DNA of 50,227 nt, from the IMG/VR virus record IMGVR_UViG_2529292913_000006; one strand, given 5' to 3'. The translations under genes were made by a program, and so were the position numbers. Positions 5,612-15,032 of the stretch are shown piece by piece (position 1 is the first letter of the stretch; every line of letters begins with the position of its first letter). A model generated the notes under the pieces. The model was not told the DNA's origin. It ran no database searches and saw only the letters and a list, made by a program, of their open reading frames with translations. The stretch is from a virus (lineage: Duplodnaviria; Heunggongvirae; Uroviricota; Caudoviricetes).

Positions 5612-5645
5612 AAAACCCGGCACGGTGGCCGGGACGTTTTATTTC
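5612..5645 (-). terminator. Rho-independent terminator ending the immunity-region operon
   Basis: Stem CCCGGC/GCCGGG (5616-5633) followed on the minus strand by a T-run; sits immediately downstream of the DUF4411 stop. Confidence 0.6.
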
Positions 5646-6151
5646 AAAGAAAAATTATGACTAGCGTATCTTGGAAGAAATTCATATAGTGTTAATGTCT
5701 TAACGCCGTGAGAAGCAGCAGCATCCGGGATCATTATTCTTTTTTTAGGTTTGCCACCGGATGGTTTCTCATGGGTAATAATAGTATATCCATGTGTCAT
5801 CGCATGGGCTATTAAAAAAGCATCTGCTTTTTCATGGCTTGCAAAATCAAACTTTGCCTTTTCGGTAACATCTAATTTAGTTGACCAATTTATTAACTTT
5901 GCATAATTTTCTATTGAACTATGCTCATCTTCGAAGAATGATGATGGTAACTCTTCTTTAATCCATTTACACAATGGATCATCTTTTGCACATAGTTCTT
6001 TTTTTACAGCATTAATGCTATAAATCAGACCATTAATGTGTAAAGCGAGAAGAAAATCCCAAAATATTTTGCAATAATTGAAGTTATATGCAAAGTTTTT
6101 TGCCTCTATGAAGACATTACTATCAATTAAGAATTTTCCATTATGAATCAT
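5639..6151 (-). CDS. DUF4411-family protein (predicted PIN-like nuclease), candidate toxin/effector
   Basis: 170-aa ORF; ATG overlaps the stop of the upstream ImmA-like gene (ATGA coupling); family assignment from memory of sequence features. Confidence 0.75.
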   Translation of the reverse strand: MIHNGKFLIDSNVFIEAKNFAYNFNYCKIFWDFLLALHINGLIYSINAVKKELCAKDDPLCKWIKEELPSSFFEDEHSSIENYAKLINWSTKLDVTEKAKFDFASHEKADAFLIAHAMTHGYTIITHEKPSGGKPKKRIMIPDAAASHGVKTLTLYEFLPRYASHNFSLK

Positions 6152-7287
6152 AGAGATTCTCGTTTTTTATAAAATTCAACAACTGTATCTGCTTTTACAT
6201 TTAGCAGTACGCCTGCTTCCCTTAATGGTAATTGTTGAGACATTGCTTTGGAAATTATTATATTCGTAAGTTTTGGACTGTTACGAACAGGTAATGTGTT
6301 AAAGAAAGAACCACCATTGGATTCTTTTTTGGGCTTATTGTAAGCTTGATCTTTAATTATCTCCAAAGTGTTTCTTTCTATCAAATCTAATTGTAACGCT
6401 TTGATTGCACAAGCGAAATCACTAACCTTAAATAACTTAGAAACCTCTTTTACTCGATAATAATTATTATCGCTGGATGCATTAAGCCAGAAAGATTTGA
6501 AGAGATTATCAGGCATTAAGATTTCAGCAGCAACTTTATTACAAAAAGATTCTATGTTTTTTTCTGTGTCCCACCCAGAGACTCCATCGACTCCAAGCCA
6601 AAGATGAGCCACCTCATGAAATAATGTAAATACCTGCGCAGATAACGCGTCCGAGCTATTTACAAAAATGATCGGAGCAACGCTATCAGATATACAGAAA
6701 CCACGAAACTCTCGCGTGTCAAGTTTTCTTTTATTATTATTACCCACAACACCATTCTTGAAAACTAATACGCCAGTGTCTTCTATTAGTTTTGCCACTT
6801 TAGAAAAATAGCTCTCAAAAGTGACATTTTTTATCTCTTTTTGTATATCAAAATGTATTGTGTTTGCTATGTCTGTAGCAACAACCTTATAATTTAATTT
6901 TCTATTAAATTTAAATTTACCAATAAAATCGAGTGGATCATCATTACCATTTTCTCTTAAATAGTCTTTGTACCACTCAAGTTTATATTCTATATCATAG
7001 TAAACATCAAAAAAATCTTTTCCTAACTCACGGCTATTTATAGCTTGCCTTAAGTCAGGGATCTTGGGTTTGGCTGGAGTTGGTGGCGTTTCAAGAAATA
7101 AAAAACCGAAAGGGATTCCTCCAATTTTTGCCAGTTTTTCTGCTGCGGATTTACTTACCACTCCGTTAAGAAATTTATTAATCTTTTTGGGCATGACTTG
7201 GTCAGCAAGAGTTTCGATAGAAACTCCTTGAGAATTTGCTATCCAATCAATCATCTTCCTAGACAATTGAAATTCAACCGCTGCCAT
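6148..7287 (-). CDS. HTH (XRE-type) plus ImmA/IrrE-family zinc metallopeptidase (COG2856-like)
   Basis: 379 aa; HEXXH motif (FHEVAHLWLG) in central region; N-terminal HTH-like segment; good SD (AGGTGA) upstream. Confidence 0.8.
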   Translation of the reverse strand: MAAVEFQLSRKMIDWIANSQGVSIETLADQVMPKKINKFLNGVVSKSAAEKLAKIGGIPFGFLFLETPPTPAKPKIPDLRQAINSRELGKDFFDVYYDIEYKLEWYKDYLRENGNDDPLDFIGKFKFNRKLNYKVVATDIANTIHFDIQKEIKNVTFESYFSKVAKLIEDTGVLVFKNGVVGNNNKRKLDTREFRGFCISDSVAPIIFVNSSDALSAQVFTLFHEVAHLWLGVDGVSGWDTEKNIESFCNKVAAEILMPDNLFKSFWLNASSDNNYYRVKEVSKLFKVSDFACAIKALQLDLIERNTLEIIKDQAYNKPKKESNGGSFFNTLPVRNSPKLTNIIISKAMSQQLPLREAGVLLNVKADTVVEFYKKRESL

Positions 7288-7415: not shown

Positions 7416-8108
7416 CTACCCATGCTTTCTATATGTCTGCGGCATGCTCCCGATGACTTTCCCGAAGATGAACACGCGGTTCATCTCGTCTTTCTCGATC
7501 GGGTCCCACGGTGAGTAGCTCTTGTTATCAGAGATAACCAGCAGCTTATCCTTCATCATTTGCAGGCGTTTTACATGGGCGGTGTCGTCATACAGAAACG
7601 CATAGATACCATCACCGTCGAAAGATTTAACCGTGATATCAACGAACAGCAGATCACCTGGTTCGATCGTTCCTGACATGCTGTCACCACGCACGTTAAT
7701 GATGCGGATATTTTCCGCCTTCCTGCCATCGAACATGTGACGAGCATCGTCAAACGAGTATTCAACCGAGCGTAGAACTTCTACAAACTCACGGTTGATT
7801 ACACCCGGCCCGGCACTGACTTCTATATCAAGAACGTCAATTTTGAAGTATTTGGAATGGCTGACAGCAGGCTTCCCTGATTGTTGACCGTCATTTCTCA
7901 TCGGGCCTATGCCTGAAGAGAGCCATTCTGTTCGAACACCCAATGCATTAGCTATTTCAACAATTTTTGTTGAGCCGCGCGCGTTGCCGCTTGTCAGTCT
8001 CCAGATTGTGGGTTGAGCTACGCCAGACGCCTTTGCAAGAGCGCCTTGAGACATTCCAGATTGTTCCATCGCTAGATTTAAGCGATCAGCAAGAGTTTCT
8101 TTTTTCAT
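7416..8108 (-). CDS. cI: Prophage repressor cI (HTH plus LexA-like S24 autopeptidase)
   Basis: N-terminal HTH (MSQGALAKASGVAQPTIWRL), C-terminal S24 domain (GDSM serine, KRL lysine); ATG at 8108 preferred over the track TTG at 8144. Confidence 0.85.
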   Translation of the reverse strand: MKKETLADRLNLAMEQSGMSQGALAKASGVAQPTIWRLTSGNARGSTKIVEIANALGVRTEWLSSGIGPMRNDGQQSGKPAVSHSKYFKIDVLDIEVSAGPGVINREFVEVLRSVEYSFDDARHMFDGRKAENIRIINVRGDSMSGTIEPGDLLFVDITVKSFDGDGIYAFLYDDTAHVKRLQMMKDKLLVISDNKSYSPWDPIEKDEMNRVFIFGKVIGSMPQTYRKHG

Positions 8109-8148
8109 AAGTTTTAATTTATACGCTTGCGTATTGATGGTCAAAACA

Positions 8149-8470: not shown

Positions 8471-9016
8471 ATGACTATGCAACCACTTACATACCAACAG
8501 ACTAGCGGATTTAGCCCGACTGCGGTGATAAATCGTTCTCAAACAAAACAAGCTCCAGGCCACGAAAAAATCCGTGATGCCGTCCGCGCCTGGTCGGCTG
8601 TAGATAATCAGGATGTCGTTGCCGCACTCATTGTGAATGAGTATCGGGAGCAGGGCGGCGGCACCATCGATTTCCCTGATGATGTCAGCCGTGCACGCCA
8701 GAAGCTGTTCCGCTTCCTCGATAACAAATTCGATTCTGAAAAATACCGAAATAACGTGCGTGAATTGACCCCGGCAATTCTGGCGGTACTACCGCTGGAA
8801 TATCGCGGCCACCTGGTTGAGCAGGATAGCTTCATGGCTCGGCTGGCTGAAATGGAAAAGGAACTCAGTGAGGCAAAACAGGCTGTCATTCTCAACGCAC
8901 CACGCCACCAGAAACTGAAGGAGATGAGTGAAGGCATTGTGTCGATGTTTCGTGTGGACCCGGATTTGGCTGGTCCACTGATGGCGATGGTCACCACCAT
9001 GCTGGGGGCAATATGA
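8471..9016 (+). CDS. YdaT-like protein (cII position)
   Basis: 181 aa; motifs EYREQGGG and LTPAILAVLPLEYR resemble Rac prophage YdaT. Confidence 0.55.
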   Translation: MTMQPLTYQQTSGFSPTAVINRSQTKQAPGHEKIRDAVRAWSAVDNQDVVAALIVNEYREQGGGTIDFPDDVSRARQKLFRFLDNKFDSEKYRNNVRELTPAILAVLPLEYRGHLVEQDSFMARLAEMEKELSEAKQAVILNAPRHQKLKEMSEGIVSMFRVDPDLAGPLMAMVTTMLGAI

Positions 9017-9102: not shown

Positions 9103-10032
9103 ATGGCAAACACTGCTGAGATATTCAATTTTCCAGTGCCGGATGTGGCACAAAAGGAGCCGCGCGTGGCAGATCTCGACGATGGTTATACGCGCATTGC
9201 AAATGAGTTGCTGGAAGCTGTGATGCTGGCCGGATTAACACAGCACCAGCTTCTGGTCTTCCTGGCTGTCATGCGCAAAACATATGGCTTTAATAAAAGA
9301 CTGGATTGGGTGAGCAACGAGCAACTTTCCGAATTGACCGGGATATTGCCGCACAAGTGTTCTGCTGCAAAAAGCGTTCTGGTAAAGCGTGGGATTCTTA
9401 TTCAGAGCGGGCGGAATATCGGCATTAATAATGTGGTCAGTGAATGGTCAACATTACCCGAATCAGGTAAGAAAAATAAAGTTTACCTGAAAGAGGTAAA
9501 TTTACCTGAATCAGGTAAGAAAAGTTTACCCAAATCAGGTAAAGGCGTTTACCCGAATCAGGTAAACACAAAAGACAAACTAACAAAAGACAATATAAAA
9601 CCTTTTTCGTCCGAGAATTATGGCGAATCCTCTGACCAGCCAGAAAATGCCCTTCCTGTGGTGAAACCGGATGCTGCAATTCAGAGCGGCAGCAAGTGGG
9701 GGACAGCAGAAGACCTGACCGCCGCAGAGTGGATGTTTGACATGGTGAAGACCATCGCGCCATCAGCCAGAAAACCGAATTTTGCAGGGTGGGCTAACGA
9801 TATCCGCCTGATGCGTGAACGTGACGGACGTAACCACCGCGACATGTGTGTACTGTTCCGCTGGGCATGCCAGGACAACTTCTGGTCCGGTAACGTGCTG
9901 AGTCCGGCCAAACTCCGCGACAAGTGGACCCAGCTCGAAATCAACCGAAACAAGCAACAGGCTGGCGTGACAGCCGGCAAACCAAAACTCGACCTGACAA
10001 ACACAGACTGGATTTACGGGGTGGATCTATGA
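9103..10032 (+). CDS. O: Replication initiator O
   Basis: N-terminus (MANTAEIFNFP...VADLDDGYTRIANELLEA) matches lambda O; GGAGG SD before ATG 9103; iterons inside the gene. Confidence 0.85.
   Translation: MANTAEIFNFPVPDVAQKEPRVADLDDGYTRIANELLEAVMLAGLTQHQLLVFLAVMRKTYGFNKRLDWVSNEQLSELTGILPHKCSAAKSVLVKRGILIQSGRNIGINNVVSEWSTLPESGKKNKVYLKEVNLPESGKKSLPKSGKGVYPNQVNTKDKLTKDNIKPFSSENYGESSDQPENALPVVKPDAAIQSGSKWGTAEDLTAAEWMFDMVKTIAPSARKPNFAGWANDIRLMRERDGRNHRDMCVLFRWACQDNFWSGNVLSPAKLRDKWTQLEINRNKQQAGVTAGKPKLDLTNTDWIYGVDL
9455..9610. repeat. Replication origin: four iterons plus AT-rich region inside O
   Basis: Repeated ATCAGGTAA-containing 18-20 bp units at about 9460-9560, followed by an A-rich stretch. 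Confidence 0.75.
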
Positions 10033-10742
10033 AAAACATCGCCGCACAGATGATTAACTTTGACCGTGAGCAGATGCGCCGGATCGCCAACAACATGCCG
10101 GAACAGTACGACGAAAAGCCGCAGGTACAGCAGGTAGCGCAGATCATCAACGGTGTATTCAGCCAGTTGCTGGCAACTTTCCCTGCGAGCCTGGCTAACC
10201 GTGACCAGAACGAACTGAACGAAATTCGCCGCCAGTGGGTTCTGGCTTTCCGGGAAAACGGGATCACCACAATGGAACAGGTTAACGCTGGAATGCGCGT
10301 AGCCCGTCGGCAGAATCGACCATTCCTGCCGTCGCCCGGCCAGTTCGTAGCGTGGTGTAAGCAGAGTGGCGGGGCGTTAGGTATCACTGTTGACCAAGTC
10401 ATAACCGAATACTGGGATTGGCGTAATCGTTCCTTCGAATTCACTTCCAGCGAGCATTTCCCGTGGTCACAGCCTGTCATGTACCACATCTGCGTCGAAC
10501 TGCGCCACCGCAGCACAGAGCGCCAGTTAACGCATGGTGAGCTGGCGCGTGAAGCCGGCGATCTGCTGGACATGTGGGAGAGGCGCGTCACCGAGGGCAA
10601 ACCAGTACCGCCTGTGCGCCGGGCGATTGCAGCACCGGCTGCCGAGCATGGCCCGACGCCAATCCAGCTGCTTCAGGCGAAGTACAACCGCAACAAGTCG
10701 AACGGGATGGTGCGAAGTGGTAAAGAAGATAATAAAGAATAA
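10029..10742 (+). CDS. P: Replication protein P (DnaB helicase loader)
   Basis: N-terminal half matches lambda P (MKNIAAQM.NFDREQMRRIANNMPEQYDEKPQVQQ...); ATGA overlap with O stop. Confidence 0.85.
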   Translation: MKNIAAQMINFDREQMRRIANNMPEQYDEKPQVQQVAQIINGVFSQLLATFPASLANRDQNELNEIRRQWVLAFRENGITTMEQVNAGMRVARRQNRPFLPSPGQFVAWCKQSGGALGITVDQVITEYWDWRNRSFEFTSSEHFPWSQPVMYHICVELRHRSTERQLTHGELAREAGDLLDMWERRVTEGKPVPPVRRAIAAPAAEHGPTPIQLLQAKYNRNKSNGMVRSGKEDNKE

Positions 10743-10820
10743 TATTTAGGGTTATAGGTCTTAGCCCATTTTAAATGGAAGGCAGACATGCAGCCATGCA
10801 TACTTCGCATGGCAACATAA

Positions 10821-11249
10821 TTATTTAGACAAACTATCTAATTTTTGCGTCGCTTTTTGTGTTAGGTCGCTGTAACTGATAAACCCTACGTTAGCACCTA
10901 CAATTAACACTAAGAACACTAAGCTGCATATGGATAGAGTGGCAGATTTATGCTTATGGAAAACAAAATATGCTACTATTGCACTTAATATGAAGGAAAT
11001 GAATAGAAATATAGATGTTGATGTTTTTAGATATTTTTCAGGAAATAATGGGTGAGCAATAATGTATACAAGATTAAGTAGTATATAAATTGCTACCGGA
11101 ATGAAAATCATGCTCCAGTGTGTATCTTTTTTGGGAGGGATTGGCTGCAAATAATCAGACACCGTTTTTCCATCAGTTTCAAGAAGAATTACTAGATCTC
11201 TTACTTCACCACTGACTTGAGTGCCATCCTTAGTAGTAATGTTAATCAT
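10821..11249 (-). CDS. Small membrane protein (about 3 TM helices), second gene of an AT-rich cargo pair
   Basis: ATG at 11249 overlaps the TGA of the upstream gene; hydrophobic segments (IFIPVAIYILLNLVYII, IFLFISFILSAIVAYFVF, ICSLVFLVLIVGANVGFI). Confidence 0.55.
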   Translation of the reverse strand: MINITTKDGTQVSGEVRDLVILLETDGKTVSDYLQPIPPKKDTHWSMIFIPVAIYILLNLVYIIAHPLFPEKYLKTSTSIFLFISFILSAIVAYFVFHKHKSATLSICSLVFLVLIVGANVGFISYSDLTQKATQKLDSLSK

Positions 11250-11623
11250 TTTTTCCCTCCAAATACGATGCCCTCTACGTCTTTGGAAGCTTTTTGTGAT
11301 GACCACTCCTCTGAATCAGGTGATTTAATTAAAAATATTGTATCTCCATCAAAAATCGTATTTGTTCCGTAAAAATTTACATTTGATAGATCACCACCAA
11401 AAACCCTCTGCCCACTCGAGGTAATTGCCTCACCTAATTTAGTAAAATTACCTGCAATAGATGATTTTCTTTTTCCACTTCTATTCAAAGTGGCTTTAAT
11501 TACACCACCACCATCCTTAGAGTTAAATAATTGAATGTCCACTCCAGCAGTTGGTTGTATATATTTTGAAAGCTCTTTCTTGAACTTGTTAATATATTTA
11601 TCTTTGTTTTCTTTGTTGGTCAT
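11246..11623 (-). CDS. Hypothetical soluble protein, first gene of the AT-rich cargo pair
   Basis: 125-aa ORF with ATG start, Lys/Gly-rich, no recognisable domain; antisense to the replication module. Confidence 0.55.
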   Translation of the reverse strand: MTNKENKDKYINKFKKELSKYIQPTAGVDIQLFNSKDGGGVIKATLNRSGKRKSSIAGNFTKLGEAITSSGQRVFGGDLSNVNFYGTNTIFDGDTIFLIKSPDSEEWSSQKASKDVEGIVFGGKK

Positions 11624-11887
11624 TGGTTAGATCCATAGTTCTGGCTGTGATTAGGTGAAAGTATACAAGGTTTTTAAAGCGAAGATCACTGTTTTGGCTT
11701 CAAGATAGTTTTGATTTATCGTAATCAATCCGCCATAATCCTCTCATCGGAGCCTGAACAACTCCGGTGACTTCTGCGCATTTAAGGGGACTTAAATGCG
11801 ACCACAATCTGAACTCATCACCTTGTCACAGATGCAGAAATGCACCTGCGATTTTCTGCATTCTGCGGTTTCCGTTAGGGAGGCCGT

Positions 11888-12343
11888 ATGACTCTGCCAG
11901 TAGACGGCATCAAACTCCATCGCGGTAACTTCGCGGCCATCGGCCAGCAGATTCAGCCATTGCTGGATGCCGGGCAATGCTTACGCCTGCAGGTTAAGCC
12001 GTGGCGCGAGAAGCGCAGCCTGTCGCAGAACGCGCTCAGCCACATGTGGTACACGGAGATCAGCGAATATCTCATCGCCCGCGGCAAGACCTTCGCTACG
12101 CCTGAGTGGGTCAAAGACGCGATGAAGCACACCTATCTCGGCTACGAAAGCAAAGACCGTGTAGATGTCGTGTCCGGCGAGGTCACCACCGTCCAATCCC
12201 TCCGCCATACGTCAGAGCTGGAAACCGGCGAGATGTACATCTTCCTGTGCAAAGTCGAAGCCTGGGCGATGAATATCGGCTGCCACCTGACAATTCCGCA
12301 GAGCTGTGAATACCAGCAGCTGCGCGATAAGCAGGAGGCGTAA
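11888..12343 (+). CDS. ninB: NinB-family recombination protein
   Basis: 151 aa in the nin region with an NinB-like motif (SLSQNALSHMWY). Confidence 0.65.
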   Translation: MTLPVDGIKLHRGNFAAIGQQIQPLLDAGQCLRLQVKPWREKRSLSQNALSHMWYTEISEYLIARGKTFATPEWVKDAMKHTYLGYESKDRVDVVSGEVTTVQSLRHTSELETGEMYIFLCKVEAWAMNIGCHLTIPQSCEYQQLRDKQEA

Positions 12344-13155: not shown

Positions 13156-13377
13156 TGTTTGAGTTTTATATGGCAGAACTTCTTCGCCACCGCTGGGGGC
13201 ATCTGCGCTTATATCGTTTCCCCGGTTCTGTTTTGACCGATTACCGAATACTGAAGAATTACGCCAAAACCCTGACAGGAGCAGGAGTATGAAGTCAGAG
13301 ATAACAATCAACTAATACTGTTTTGTTGATTTTTGCTTGTAATTGGCGTTCTGGTCTGATTTTTGTGGAGTAAGTTG

Positions 13378-13761
13378 ATGCGTGATATTCAGATGGTTCT
13401 TGAGCGTTGGGGAGCGTGGGCGGCTAATAATCATGAAGATGTGACCTGGTCGTCCATTGCCGCCGGTTTTAAGGGATTAATTACTTCAAAAGTAAAATCT
13501 CGCCCGCAATGTTGTGACGATGACGCGATGATTATTTGCGGGTGCATGGCCCGTCTGAAAAAGAACAACAGCGATTTGCACGATTTATTAGTAGATTATT
13601 ATGTAGTCGGTATGACATTCATGTCACTGGCAGGTAAGCATTGCTGCTCTGATGGTTATATCGGGAAAAGGTTACAGAAGGCTGAGGGCATAATTGAAGG
13701 GATGTTAATGGCATTAGATATCCGGTTAGAGATGGATATCGTTGTTAATAACTCTAATTAA
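13378..13761 (+). CDS. Q: Late-gene antiterminator Q
   Basis: 127 aa ([22 protein letters not shown]...) recognised as the DLP12 QuuD-type Q; GGAG SD. Confidence 0.8.
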
Positions 13762-13779
13762 TATGCCAATTGTTTACTA

Positions 13780-13812
13780 AAAATTATTAAAAATGGGGCG
13801 TTGCAACGCCCC
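13780..13812 (-). terminator. Rho-independent terminator of the porin gene
   Basis: GGGGCG-TTGCAA-CGCCCC hairpin followed on the minus strand by a T-rich tract. Confidence 0.45.
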
Positions 13813-13949
13813 CAAAAATAAAGGGTAATATATAACAGAAGGTTTATATAGTTAGAAGCAAGGTTGTGCTCCTAAAGGAAGTGGCTTGAGGGAGCCACTT
13901 ATATGTTGGGGAGGCAAAGCCTCCCGCAACATATCTTTTAGTAATCAAA

Positions 13950-15032
13950 TTAGAACTGGTAAACCATACCTACAGCAACGATATCATCGGTAGCAACGCC
14001 AGATGCTTTCGTGAAATCGCTCTTATCAATCAGGTTGATTTTGTAATCAACAAAAGTGGACATATTTTTGTTGAAGTAATAGGTTGCACCTACATCAATA
14101 TATTCAACCAGGTCCTGATCACCCCACGCACCCAAGTCTTTTCCTTTAGATTGCAGGTAAGCAACGGACGGACGCAGACCGAAGTCGAACTGATATTGTG
14201 CAACTACTTCGAAGTTTTGTGCTTTGTTGGCAATATGGTTATTACCAAAAACAGTCATGTTCTGGGTTTCAGAATAGGTGGTAGCCAGATAGATGTTGTT
14301 CGCATCATATTTCAGACCAGCTGCCCATACTTCAGCATTTTGACCAGATGCATTCAGGCTGTTGTTACCGTAGATAACCTGATTATTAGTGCGGTCAGAT
14401 TTAGCATAGGTTGCACCTACACCGAATCCTTCATACTCATAAGTAGTGGAGAAACCGAAACCATCACCATTAGCTTCAGTTACGTCAGTGCGGTCATTTT
14501 TACCCTGATACTGAGCAGCAAAGTTCAGACCATCAACCAGACCAAAGAAGTCGTTGTTACGATAAGTTGCAACACCAGTGGTGCGACCAGTCATGAACAC
14601 ATCTGTTTGGGTCCAGGTATCGCCACCGAATTCTGGCAGAACGTCAGTCCACGCACCGATGTCATATGCTACACCGTAGTTACGGCCGTAATCGATTGAG
14701 CCGTAGTCCCCGAATTTCAGGCCTGCAAATGCAAGACGGGTTTTGTCTTTGGAGGAGCCTTGAGATTCAGCGCGGTTGCCTTTGAATTCATATTCCCACT
14801 GACCGAAACCAGTCAGTTGATCGTTGATTTGGGTTTCACCTTTGAAGCCAAGACGGGCATAAGTAGTATCACCATCATCTGCATCATTAGAGGAGAAGTA
14901 GTGCTTGGCATTAACTTTCCCATATAGATCCAGCTTGTTACTGTCTTTATTATAAATTTCAGCTGCCTGAGCAGACATCGCCATCAGTACTGATGCAGCT
15001 ACAGCAGAAATTGCCACTGTTAATTTTTTCAT
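13950..15032 (-). CDS. nmpC: OmpC/OmpF-family general porin (NmpC/Lc-type, prophage-encoded)
   Basis: 360 aa with signal peptide ([23 protein letters not shown]), porin hallmarks and C-terminal MVYQF; antisense between Q and the lysis cassette. Confidence 0.9.

Follow-up and report, generated by a model that had tools for sequence, protein, structure and literature searches.

What would a pair of small antisense genes be doing between the replication and nin genes of a lambdoid prophage? The DNA analysed here (the window, 50,227 nucleotides (nt); IMG/VR virus record IMGVR_UViG_2529292913_000006, Caudoviricetes) is a full-length DLP12-like lambdoid prophage of Escherichia coli, and the pair, which we call A and B, had been picked out from its letters alone, in what we refer to as the sequence-only reading, as a coupled soluble-plus-membrane unit of the kind found in superinfection exclusion and abortive infection. 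We find that A-B is a self-contained, horizontally mobile two-gene module of ~0.9 kb, which belongs to no described family on the searches reported below. As to what it does, we tentatively favour a two-part exclusion or abortive-infection module of a Rex-like kind, in which A would be a cytosolic sensor or regulator and B a membrane effector.

A and B are coupled genes under purifying selection

The features on which the question turns are listed here in window coordinates, with lengths in amino acids (aa).

11246–11623, minus strand: gene A, encoding a soluble protein of 125 aa (RefSeq WP_000182282.1, "hypothetical protein"; phrog_18061)
10821–11249, minus strand: gene B, encoding a membrane protein of 142 aa (WP_000608370.1; phrog_16940)
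11246–11260, minus strand: A/B coupling junction, a GGAGG Shine-Dalgarno sequence (11260–11256) in the last A codons, then an ATGA stop/start overlap (11249–11246)
10029–10742, plus strand: left flank, replication gene P, convergent with B and with 63.5% identity to lambda P
11888–12343, plus strand: right flank, ybcN (YbcN family protein), which opens the nin region and is divergent from A

Two overlapping minus-strand genes are confirmed where the sequence-only reading had placed them, and the translational coupling that it proposed is borne out by the ATGA overlap together with the Shine-Dalgarno sequence inside the 3′ end of A. The length of B is counted from the ATG at 11249; the mechanical open reading frame reaches further, to a GTG at 11306. 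A contains 17 lysines, 15 glycines and zero hydrophobic segments, and B contains three hydrophobic segments (residues ~45–67, 78–97, and 105–125), in agreement with the earlier description of a soluble Lys/Gly-rich protein accompanied by a three-helix membrane protein. The architecture of B comprises a soluble N-terminal domain of ~44 aa, net-acidic over the first 44 residues, followed by three transmembrane (TM) helices, of which TM2 and TM3 are joined by a basic HKHK loop, and then a short C-terminal tail; the positive-inside rule suggests that the N-terminus faces in and the C-terminus out.

The pair is AT-rich relative to its flanks, as had been remarked: at 33.7% GC it lies below P (56.5%), ybcN/ninB (57.7%), and the window as a whole (49.3%). 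Of 2000 shuffled versions of the region, 7 contained a stop-free run of 125 codons or more, and the ratio of nonsynonymous to synonymous substitution rates (dN/dS) between the window copy and its enterobacterial relatives is 0.07–0.08 for A and 0.07–0.09 for B. Both genes are under strong purifying selection. The low dN/dS, the rarity of such runs in shuffled sequence, and the conservation of both proteins across phyla together indicate that A and B are real genes and not chance reading frames.

Two small, adjacent, co-translated genes are also what type II and type IV toxin–antitoxin (TA) modules consist of, and A-B shares this property. The soluble gene comes first, each gene has ~125–140 codons, and the 4-nt overlap completes the classical antitoxin–toxin layout. 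In this explanation, which we regard as rather doubtful and to which evidence is added below, A would act in the cytosol as the antitoxin to a small membrane toxin, B, much as in CptA/CptB or GhoT/GhoS, and the two would form an addiction module whose main task is to stabilise the carrier element and not to keep phages out.

The pair is kept together across several phyla

Word-indexed searches recovered enterobacterial relatives only (63–92% identity). An exhaustive profile search with the A alignment returned 111 clusters at the 50% identity level (E ≤ 1e-3), nearly all of 120–135 aa; one cluster among them, P0130, a repeat protein of 1251 aa, looks like a false match. Members of the A family share the motif F-x-G-T-N ... 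L-I-K ... W ... A-x-x-D-V, with K100 invariant and Y10, G39, F84, G86, T87, W107, and D115 nearly invariant. To gather related loci from GTDB genomes and IMG/VR contigs, the motif was turned by hand into a degenerate DNA pattern, which returned 16 GTDB stretches, 11 of them containing a confirmed A homologue, and 11 IMG/VR stretches, all 11 confirmed. The genome matches include Thiohalobacter, Photobacterium, Neptuniibacter, Nitrosomonas, Nitrospira, a Deltaproteobacteria metagenome-assembled genome, Synechococcus, and three Flavobacteriia, and represent the phyla Proteobacteria, Bacteroidota, Cyanobacteria, and Nitrospirota. The family spans several phyla and non-phage contexts, and the notion of a pair confined to this lambdoid slot has to be given up.

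In every complete locus checked, including enterobacterial prophages, pattern-matched loci, and divergent members, a B-type protein is encoded directly after A, and most A-B pairs across phyla keep the 4-nt ATGA overlap. B-type proteins begin with a conserved soluble N-domain (consensus MK[IL]G..EGTPEE[IV]..F.EN.GL...Y) and continue through a Trp to three TM helices, the last of them preceded by a basic loop, and a short tail. Even the most divergent A members (at loci L047, L048, and L050, and also proteins P0031, P0033, and P0036) have a B-type partner. When 129 neighbouring proteins from 17 loci were compared all against all by BLAST, no third gene recurred, which argues that A and B are the whole system; in one subgroup, the upstream overlapping gene encodes a plasmid Rep.

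Searches for known families and folds

That neither protein resembles a recognisable family was part of the sequence-only reading, and this held up against Pfam, NCBIfam, PADLOC, PDB, and Rfam, with PHROGs of unknown function as the only assignments. In Pfam-A and NCBIfam, A was without matches, and B had only sub-threshold matches to unrelated, TM-rich membrane families; 84 A homologues and 18 B homologues likewise had no Pfam or NCBIfam match at the curated cut-off. Over its full length, A corresponds to phrog_18061 (E 9.3e-85, residues 1–125 of 125) and B to phrog_16940 (E 2.3e-96, residues 1–142 of 142), both annotated "unknown function". PDB profile searches made from the deep alignment of A and from the alignment of B returned nothing meaningful, and the window had no match in Rfam. 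Comparison of the two profiles with hhalign was negative, and the possibility that A and B are duplicates of each other was rejected.

No helix-turn-helix (HTH), ribbon-helix-helix, AbrB, or other known antitoxin or DNA-binding domain was found in A, and no TA family matched in Pfam or NCBIfam, both of which count against an addiction module. AlphaFold2 models, built on shallow enterobacterial alignments, are of low confidence because of that shallowness. For A, the model (mean predicted local distance difference test score, pLDDT, 58.5) has the topology alpha-beta-beta-alpha-beta-beta-alpha, and for B (pLDDT 67.7) it consists of a beta-hairpin and a helix, then three long helices.

Mobile carriers and genomic neighbours

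In most hosts, the GC content of the cassette lies below that of the flanking DNA, and the carriers are of several kinds. In a GC-rich chromosomal integron array (L016, 3600–6737), A-B lies exactly between two attC sites (GCCTAAC...GTTAGGC, 34-nt inverted arms) and the neighbouring cassettes are bounded alike, so that this homologue is an integron cassette, a definition that is not applicable to the window copy. The other cassettes of the array encode a PD-Lambda-3_B homologue, GNAT acetyltransferases, BrnA, and Gp49/HTH TA-like genes. A 4.8-kb metagenomic contig (L055, 3–3080) has the order Rep-A-B-MobC(NikA-like)-relaxase, in which A is P0031, the closest outgroup at 42% identity, and Rep shares 82% identity with the Rep of ~5-kb enterobacterial plasmids; the contig is a small mobilizable plasmid with A-B as its sole cargo. 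Integrase, lysozyme, holin, and terminase genes are present on phage-like contigs (L012/L013 and L037), and chromosomal islands with the pair occur in Flavobacteriia, Synechococcus, and Nitrospira. Integrases were found in several loci.

Defence genes adjoin the pair in four of ~13 independent chromosomal loci, a count made without a matched control. The neighbours recorded at individual loci are as follows.

L018: BrxA immediately downstream (E 6e-40)
L016: PD-Lambda-3_B cassette next door (E 6e-83)
L021: PDC-M14A-like gene adjacent, and DrmD (DISARM-like) 2 kb away (E 9e-204)
L033: AriA/PtuA/HEC-04-like ATPase 1.6 kb away
L002: DndB-like gene in the same prophage slot
L058: PIN-like and DUF4160/DUF2442 pairs beside the cassette

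Some of these settings would also suit an addiction module, namely the integron cassette among TA cassettes, the place beside PIN-like and DUF4160/DUF2442 pairs, and the small plasmid without other cargo. A further explanation is that the pair has an accessory membrane function outside conflict, as a channel, a transporter, or a determinant of stress tolerance, and is carried as lysogenic-conversion cargo like emrE in DLP12. Several homologous loci do lie among housekeeping or transport genes, and no defence model was matched; however, the patchy distribution, the low GC content, and mobile carriers near BREX, DISARM, and PD-Lambda-3 genes fit conflict systems better, and B reached no transporter or channel family above threshold, with sub-threshold matches limited to TM segments. 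We consider such an accessory function unlikely.

A cargo slot at the replication–nin junction

In the window, A-B is antisense between P and ybcN/ninB. Lambda has ren between P and ninB, and K-12 DLP12 has emrE, ylcJ, ybcK, ybcL, ybcM, and ylcH between renD and ybcN; ren in the one and the emrE–ylcH set in the other, at the same position, identify the slot as a cargo site, and the sequence-only reading was right to place the pair in it. The K-12 slot holds non-defence cargo (emrE, ybcL, and ybcM), a point in favour of an accessory function outside conflict.

E. coli strain A7 carries an identical pair in a prophage beside tRNA-Arg, with the order integrase, exo/bet/gam, cI-like repressor, O, P, [B, A], ybcN, ninE, ybcO, rusA, quuD, OmpC-like porin, and lysis genes. 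The pair is present in 46 of 5426 complete E. coli genomes, every copy with at least 99% identity, and its E. coli carriers comprise at least two prophage variants that differ in the integrase and in the cargo after cI. An antisense placement at the replication/nin junction is seen without exception in Klebsiella and Enterobacter prophages that carry the pair, whether their replication module is of the O/P, DnaB-like, or IstB/DnaA-like type. A-B has two marks of a moron, a deviant GC content and an insertion between genes that are adjacent or nearly so in relatives, and it acts in this prophage as one, that is, as an accessory unit outside the phage's own programme.

A position equivalent to that of lambda ren, held constantly in enterobacterial lambdoid prophages, could also be taken to mean that the pair serves the phage life cycle, either as a Ren-like protector or as a regulator of replication or recombination. 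The sequence-only reading had named clear homology to Ren or another replication or regulatory protein as a finding that would refute it, and homology of A and B to lambda Ren, RexA, RexB, P, and NinB was rejected, with BLASTP and the A and B family hidden Markov models all negative. The pair is antisense to the early operon and is not confined to phages, since it is also carried by an integron, by a small plasmid, and by chromosomal islands. A life-cycle role is very improbable and already largely refuted.

The DNA around the slot offers observations of its own. Similarity of other phages to a 1201-nt query is limited to its 3′ end (1003–1201; window ~11702–11900), in the ybcN-proximal flank. 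This stretch of ~190 bp, 5′ of ybcN, has 79–98% identity in many lambdoid phages, among them HK639, HK225, phi80, phage 82, and Enterobacter phages, and is annotated in phage 82 as containing a regulator-binding site, a promoter, and a ribosome-binding site and in phi80 as inverted repeat IR4. It is the right-hand edge of the cargo slot. In E. coli CV839-06 (NZ_CP025753.1, 4022822–4024799), the 1.2-kb region is in two pieces around IS1A, with the cassette or its flank interrupted. In the enterobacterial prophage L002 (5665–7348 and 9118–10971), the slot stacks A-B, a DndB-like gene (E 7e-36), a weakly matching HNH gene, and a further pair with weak Pfam matches to pore-forming colicin and colicin immunity. 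With ren, emrE/ybcLM, DndB-like genes, colicin-like genes, and A-B among its contents, the replication–nin junction of lambdoid prophages is a slot worth mining.

Fusions and decayed copies

Two unusual loci bear on how A might work. P0104 (L045, 246–1589) is a 447-aa protein that combines an A-family domain (residues 7–119) with an HNH nuclease motif and an uncharacterised C-terminal region of ~200 aa, and the 77 nt left between it and the contig end contain no overlapping B start. At L048 (258–3051), an A homologue with a 110-aa N-terminal extension and its 3-TM partner follow a 545-aa protein with the motif EVIDNGCGM, which we take to be that of a GHKL-type ATPase; the contig also encodes a phage Rep_O protein. 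L048 may represent a three-gene variant of the system. The HNH fusion and the L048 arrangement, one example each, fit A as a sensor or adaptor to which different effectors can be attached.

Decayed copies are unevenly divided between the two genes. In three cases, B is disrupted and A is intact: a frameshift at L034 (12897–13381), a 1-nt deletion in codon 9 at L039 (~10414), and a frameshift at L023. In the reverse case, L026 from Nitrosomonas sp. Nm33 (13368–13818), A is without a start and its first ~11 codons, and B is intact. Three lesions in B with an intact A, and one the other way round, suggest that B is costly but not unconditionally lethal. Lesions that fall mostly in B and leave A intact would also be expected of a toxin and its antitoxin; the truncated A beside an intact B speaks against a constitutively lethal B, and a fusion to an HNH nuclease is odd for an antitoxin.

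A possible exclusion module

In the Rex-like scheme that we favour, translational coupling would yield A and B in fixed proportion. A, a small cytosolic alpha/beta protein, would dock on the conserved cytosolic N-domain of B, a small 3-TM protein of the inner membrane; a cue from an infecting phage would then cause A to release or activate B, which would oligomerise and compromise the membrane or block DNA entry, and the superinfecting phage would be excluded. Expression in lysogens, the A-B interaction, membrane damage, and the anti-phage effect are all steps that we infer. This scheme is favoured because the pair is conserved as a unit, because prophage, integron, and plasmid carriers are typical of defence and TA cargo, because known defence genes lie alongside, and because the cassette is lower in GC content than its flanks in most hosts. 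The A-HNH fusion fits an A that is wired to different effectors, and the B lesions with A intact fit a costly B.

A broader form of the proposal, put forward as a guarded possibility, is that A-B is an undescribed, widespread two-gene anti-phage system in which A is a novel sensor and the effector is the 3-TM protein or, rarely, a fused HNH nuclease, the whole being spread by prophages, integrons, and plasmids. Many TA systems act as abortive-infection systems, and the addiction-module explanation overlaps with the exclusion module to that extent.

Several results weigh against an anti-phage role. Among 5027 PADLOC models (PADLOC-DB v2.0.0), neither protein was matched at E ≤ 1, and fold searches with the low-confidence models (pLDDT 58 and 68) returned generic matches only. 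A search of the literature by accession, PHROG identifier, and topic found no description of A or B. Searches with tblastn of A, B, and distant A homologues found zero matches in 50,697 isolated phage genomes and 72,556 PLSDB plasmids, the plasmids having been queried with three variants of A, and from this we take the family to be rare; the absence from plasmids, where addiction modules are usually common, counts also against such a module, and the absence from isolated phages against a life-cycle role. The association with defence genes is modest and at most suggestive, at ~4 of 13 independent chromosomal loci and without a matched control, and several loci lie among housekeeping genes (smc/zipA/ligA, thiC, a methyl-accepting chemotaxis protein, and a TonB receptor). 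The A-HNH fusion is a single protein, known from metagenomic contigs of 1.7 kb that stem from two or three sequencing runs. Finally, a scan detected neither a strong sigma-70 promoter nor a canonical minus-strand terminator for A-B. The guess of superinfection exclusion or abortive infection made in the sequence-only reading survives in part: it is still the best hypothesis, in line with the mobile carriers and the nearby defence genes, and no defence-system model was matched.

Likeness to known systems

By description, A-B resembles several prophage pairs of a soluble and a membrane protein in how it may work, yet it appears to be a member of none. One of them is RexA/RexB of lambda, in which a cytosolic protein is paired with a small polytopic protein of the inner membrane. 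Like rexAB, A-B is prophage-borne accessory cargo, dispensable for phage growth, with the soluble gene first, and the proposed logic is that of a sensor gating a membrane effector. RexA/RexB is expressed in lysogens and depolarises the membrane on superinfection; the clues to a similar behaviour of A-B are the conserved −10-like box and the antisense orientation. Unlike RexA/RexB, it shows no similarity to them by sequence or profile; A has 125 aa against 279 aa for RexA, and B has three TM helices and a conserved cytosolic N-domain, whereas RexB has 144 aa and four TM helices. In addition, rexAB lies downstream of cI, while A-B lies in the P–ninB slot and its family spans phyla, an integron, and a plasmid. 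Lambda Ren (96 aa) is encoded after P on the strand of the early operon; A-B is on the opposite strand and is not homologous to it.

The gp30/gp31 pairs of the mycobacteriophages Sbash and Butters are prophage-expressed cytoplasmic and membrane proteins that exclude heterotypic phages. A-B is likewise a two-gene prophage module of a cytoplasmic and a membrane protein, and is likened to these pairs by description only; they belong to other hosts, and their sequences are, as far as we know, unrelated. The E. coli modules CptA(YgfX)/CptB(SdhE) and GhoT/GhoS each combine a small membrane toxin with a small soluble protein whose gene comes first, and A-B has similar gene sizes and a similar operon layout. 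It differs from them in having no Pfam or NCBIfam match to these families and in the larger B, with its three TM helices and conserved soluble N-domain, whose toxicity is putative. P22 SieA, T4 Imm, and HK97 gp15 are small prophage- or phage-encoded inner-membrane proteins that act alone to shield the host from incoming phage DNA. B is similar to these as a small prophage-encoded protein of the inner membrane, but it has a strictly co-conserved soluble partner, and the cassette also occurs outside phages.

If phage exclusion proves true, A-B would be a very compact (~0.9 kb) defence family without homology to known systems, in hosts that range from E. coli, Klebsiella, and Enterobacter prophages to marine and soil bacteria. 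It would then provide a tractable model of a small soluble sensor controlling a minimal membrane effector, a question that has stayed open for RexAB after decades. If the pair is a membrane-toxin TA module instead, it would still be a new family.

Transcription signals

Three candidate signals flank the pair in the window.

11660–11665, minus strand: candidate −10 box TATACT, 36 nt upstream of the A ATG
10793–10813, minus strand: GC-rich hairpin GCCATGC-N7-GCATGGC, which begins 8 nt past the B stop (z = −2.9 in the window)
10749–10767, strand unassigned: terminator-like hairpin between the convergent genes P and B, GGGTTATAGGTCTTAGCCC then a T-rich tail on the plus strand; called on the plus strand only

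A −10-like box (TATACT, TATAAT, or TATGAT) holds a constant position, 36–40 nt before the A ATG, in E. coli, Klebsiella, and Enterobacter, and the remaining upstream DNA is unrelated. There is no good −35 element near the candidate box, and a consensus promoter scan made no call at this site; from its constant placement, we infer that TATACT at 11660–11665 would be the −10 element of an A promoter. A hairpin 3′ of B is found in all three enterobacterial lineages, with the same stem sequence and longer stems at L003 (z = −5.4) and L002 (z = −4.4), and, as a predicted structure, it delimits the cassette at its conserved 3′ end. Because it is without a U tract, it is not a canonical intrinsic terminator; the hairpin at 10749–10767 could act on the minus strand too. 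Autonomous expression of A-B is plausible on these signals, and the pair, being antisense and convergent, would not be tied to the early operon with its repression.

Other variable sites in the window

An overlapping pair at 5639–7287 on the minus strand encodes an ImmA/IrrE-family metallopeptidase (379 aa) and a DUF4411 protein (170 aa). It lies directly downstream of the cI-like repressor (7416–8144, minus strand), in the position of lambda rexAB, and the peptidase has weak PADLOC matches to CapP (E 1e-14) and RmrA (E 6e-8). In relatives, the post-repressor slot contains ASCH and a hypothetical protein (E. coli BH100N), or KilA-N/BstA_C, NYN, or CbiA-like genes (Klebsiella prophages), and it looks like a second variable cargo slot, possibly a defensive one. 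In the cII position (8471–9016, plus strand), the window encodes a 181-aa protein without a PADLOC match, whose RefSeq prophage counterpart is annotated "toxin YdaT domain-containing protein". An intact 360-aa porin of the OmpC family (NmpC/Lc-like) is encoded at 13950–15032 on the minus strand, antisense between the Q antiterminator and the lysis genes; the GC content of its DNA is below that of the flanks, and the copy in K-12 DLP12 is split by IS5.

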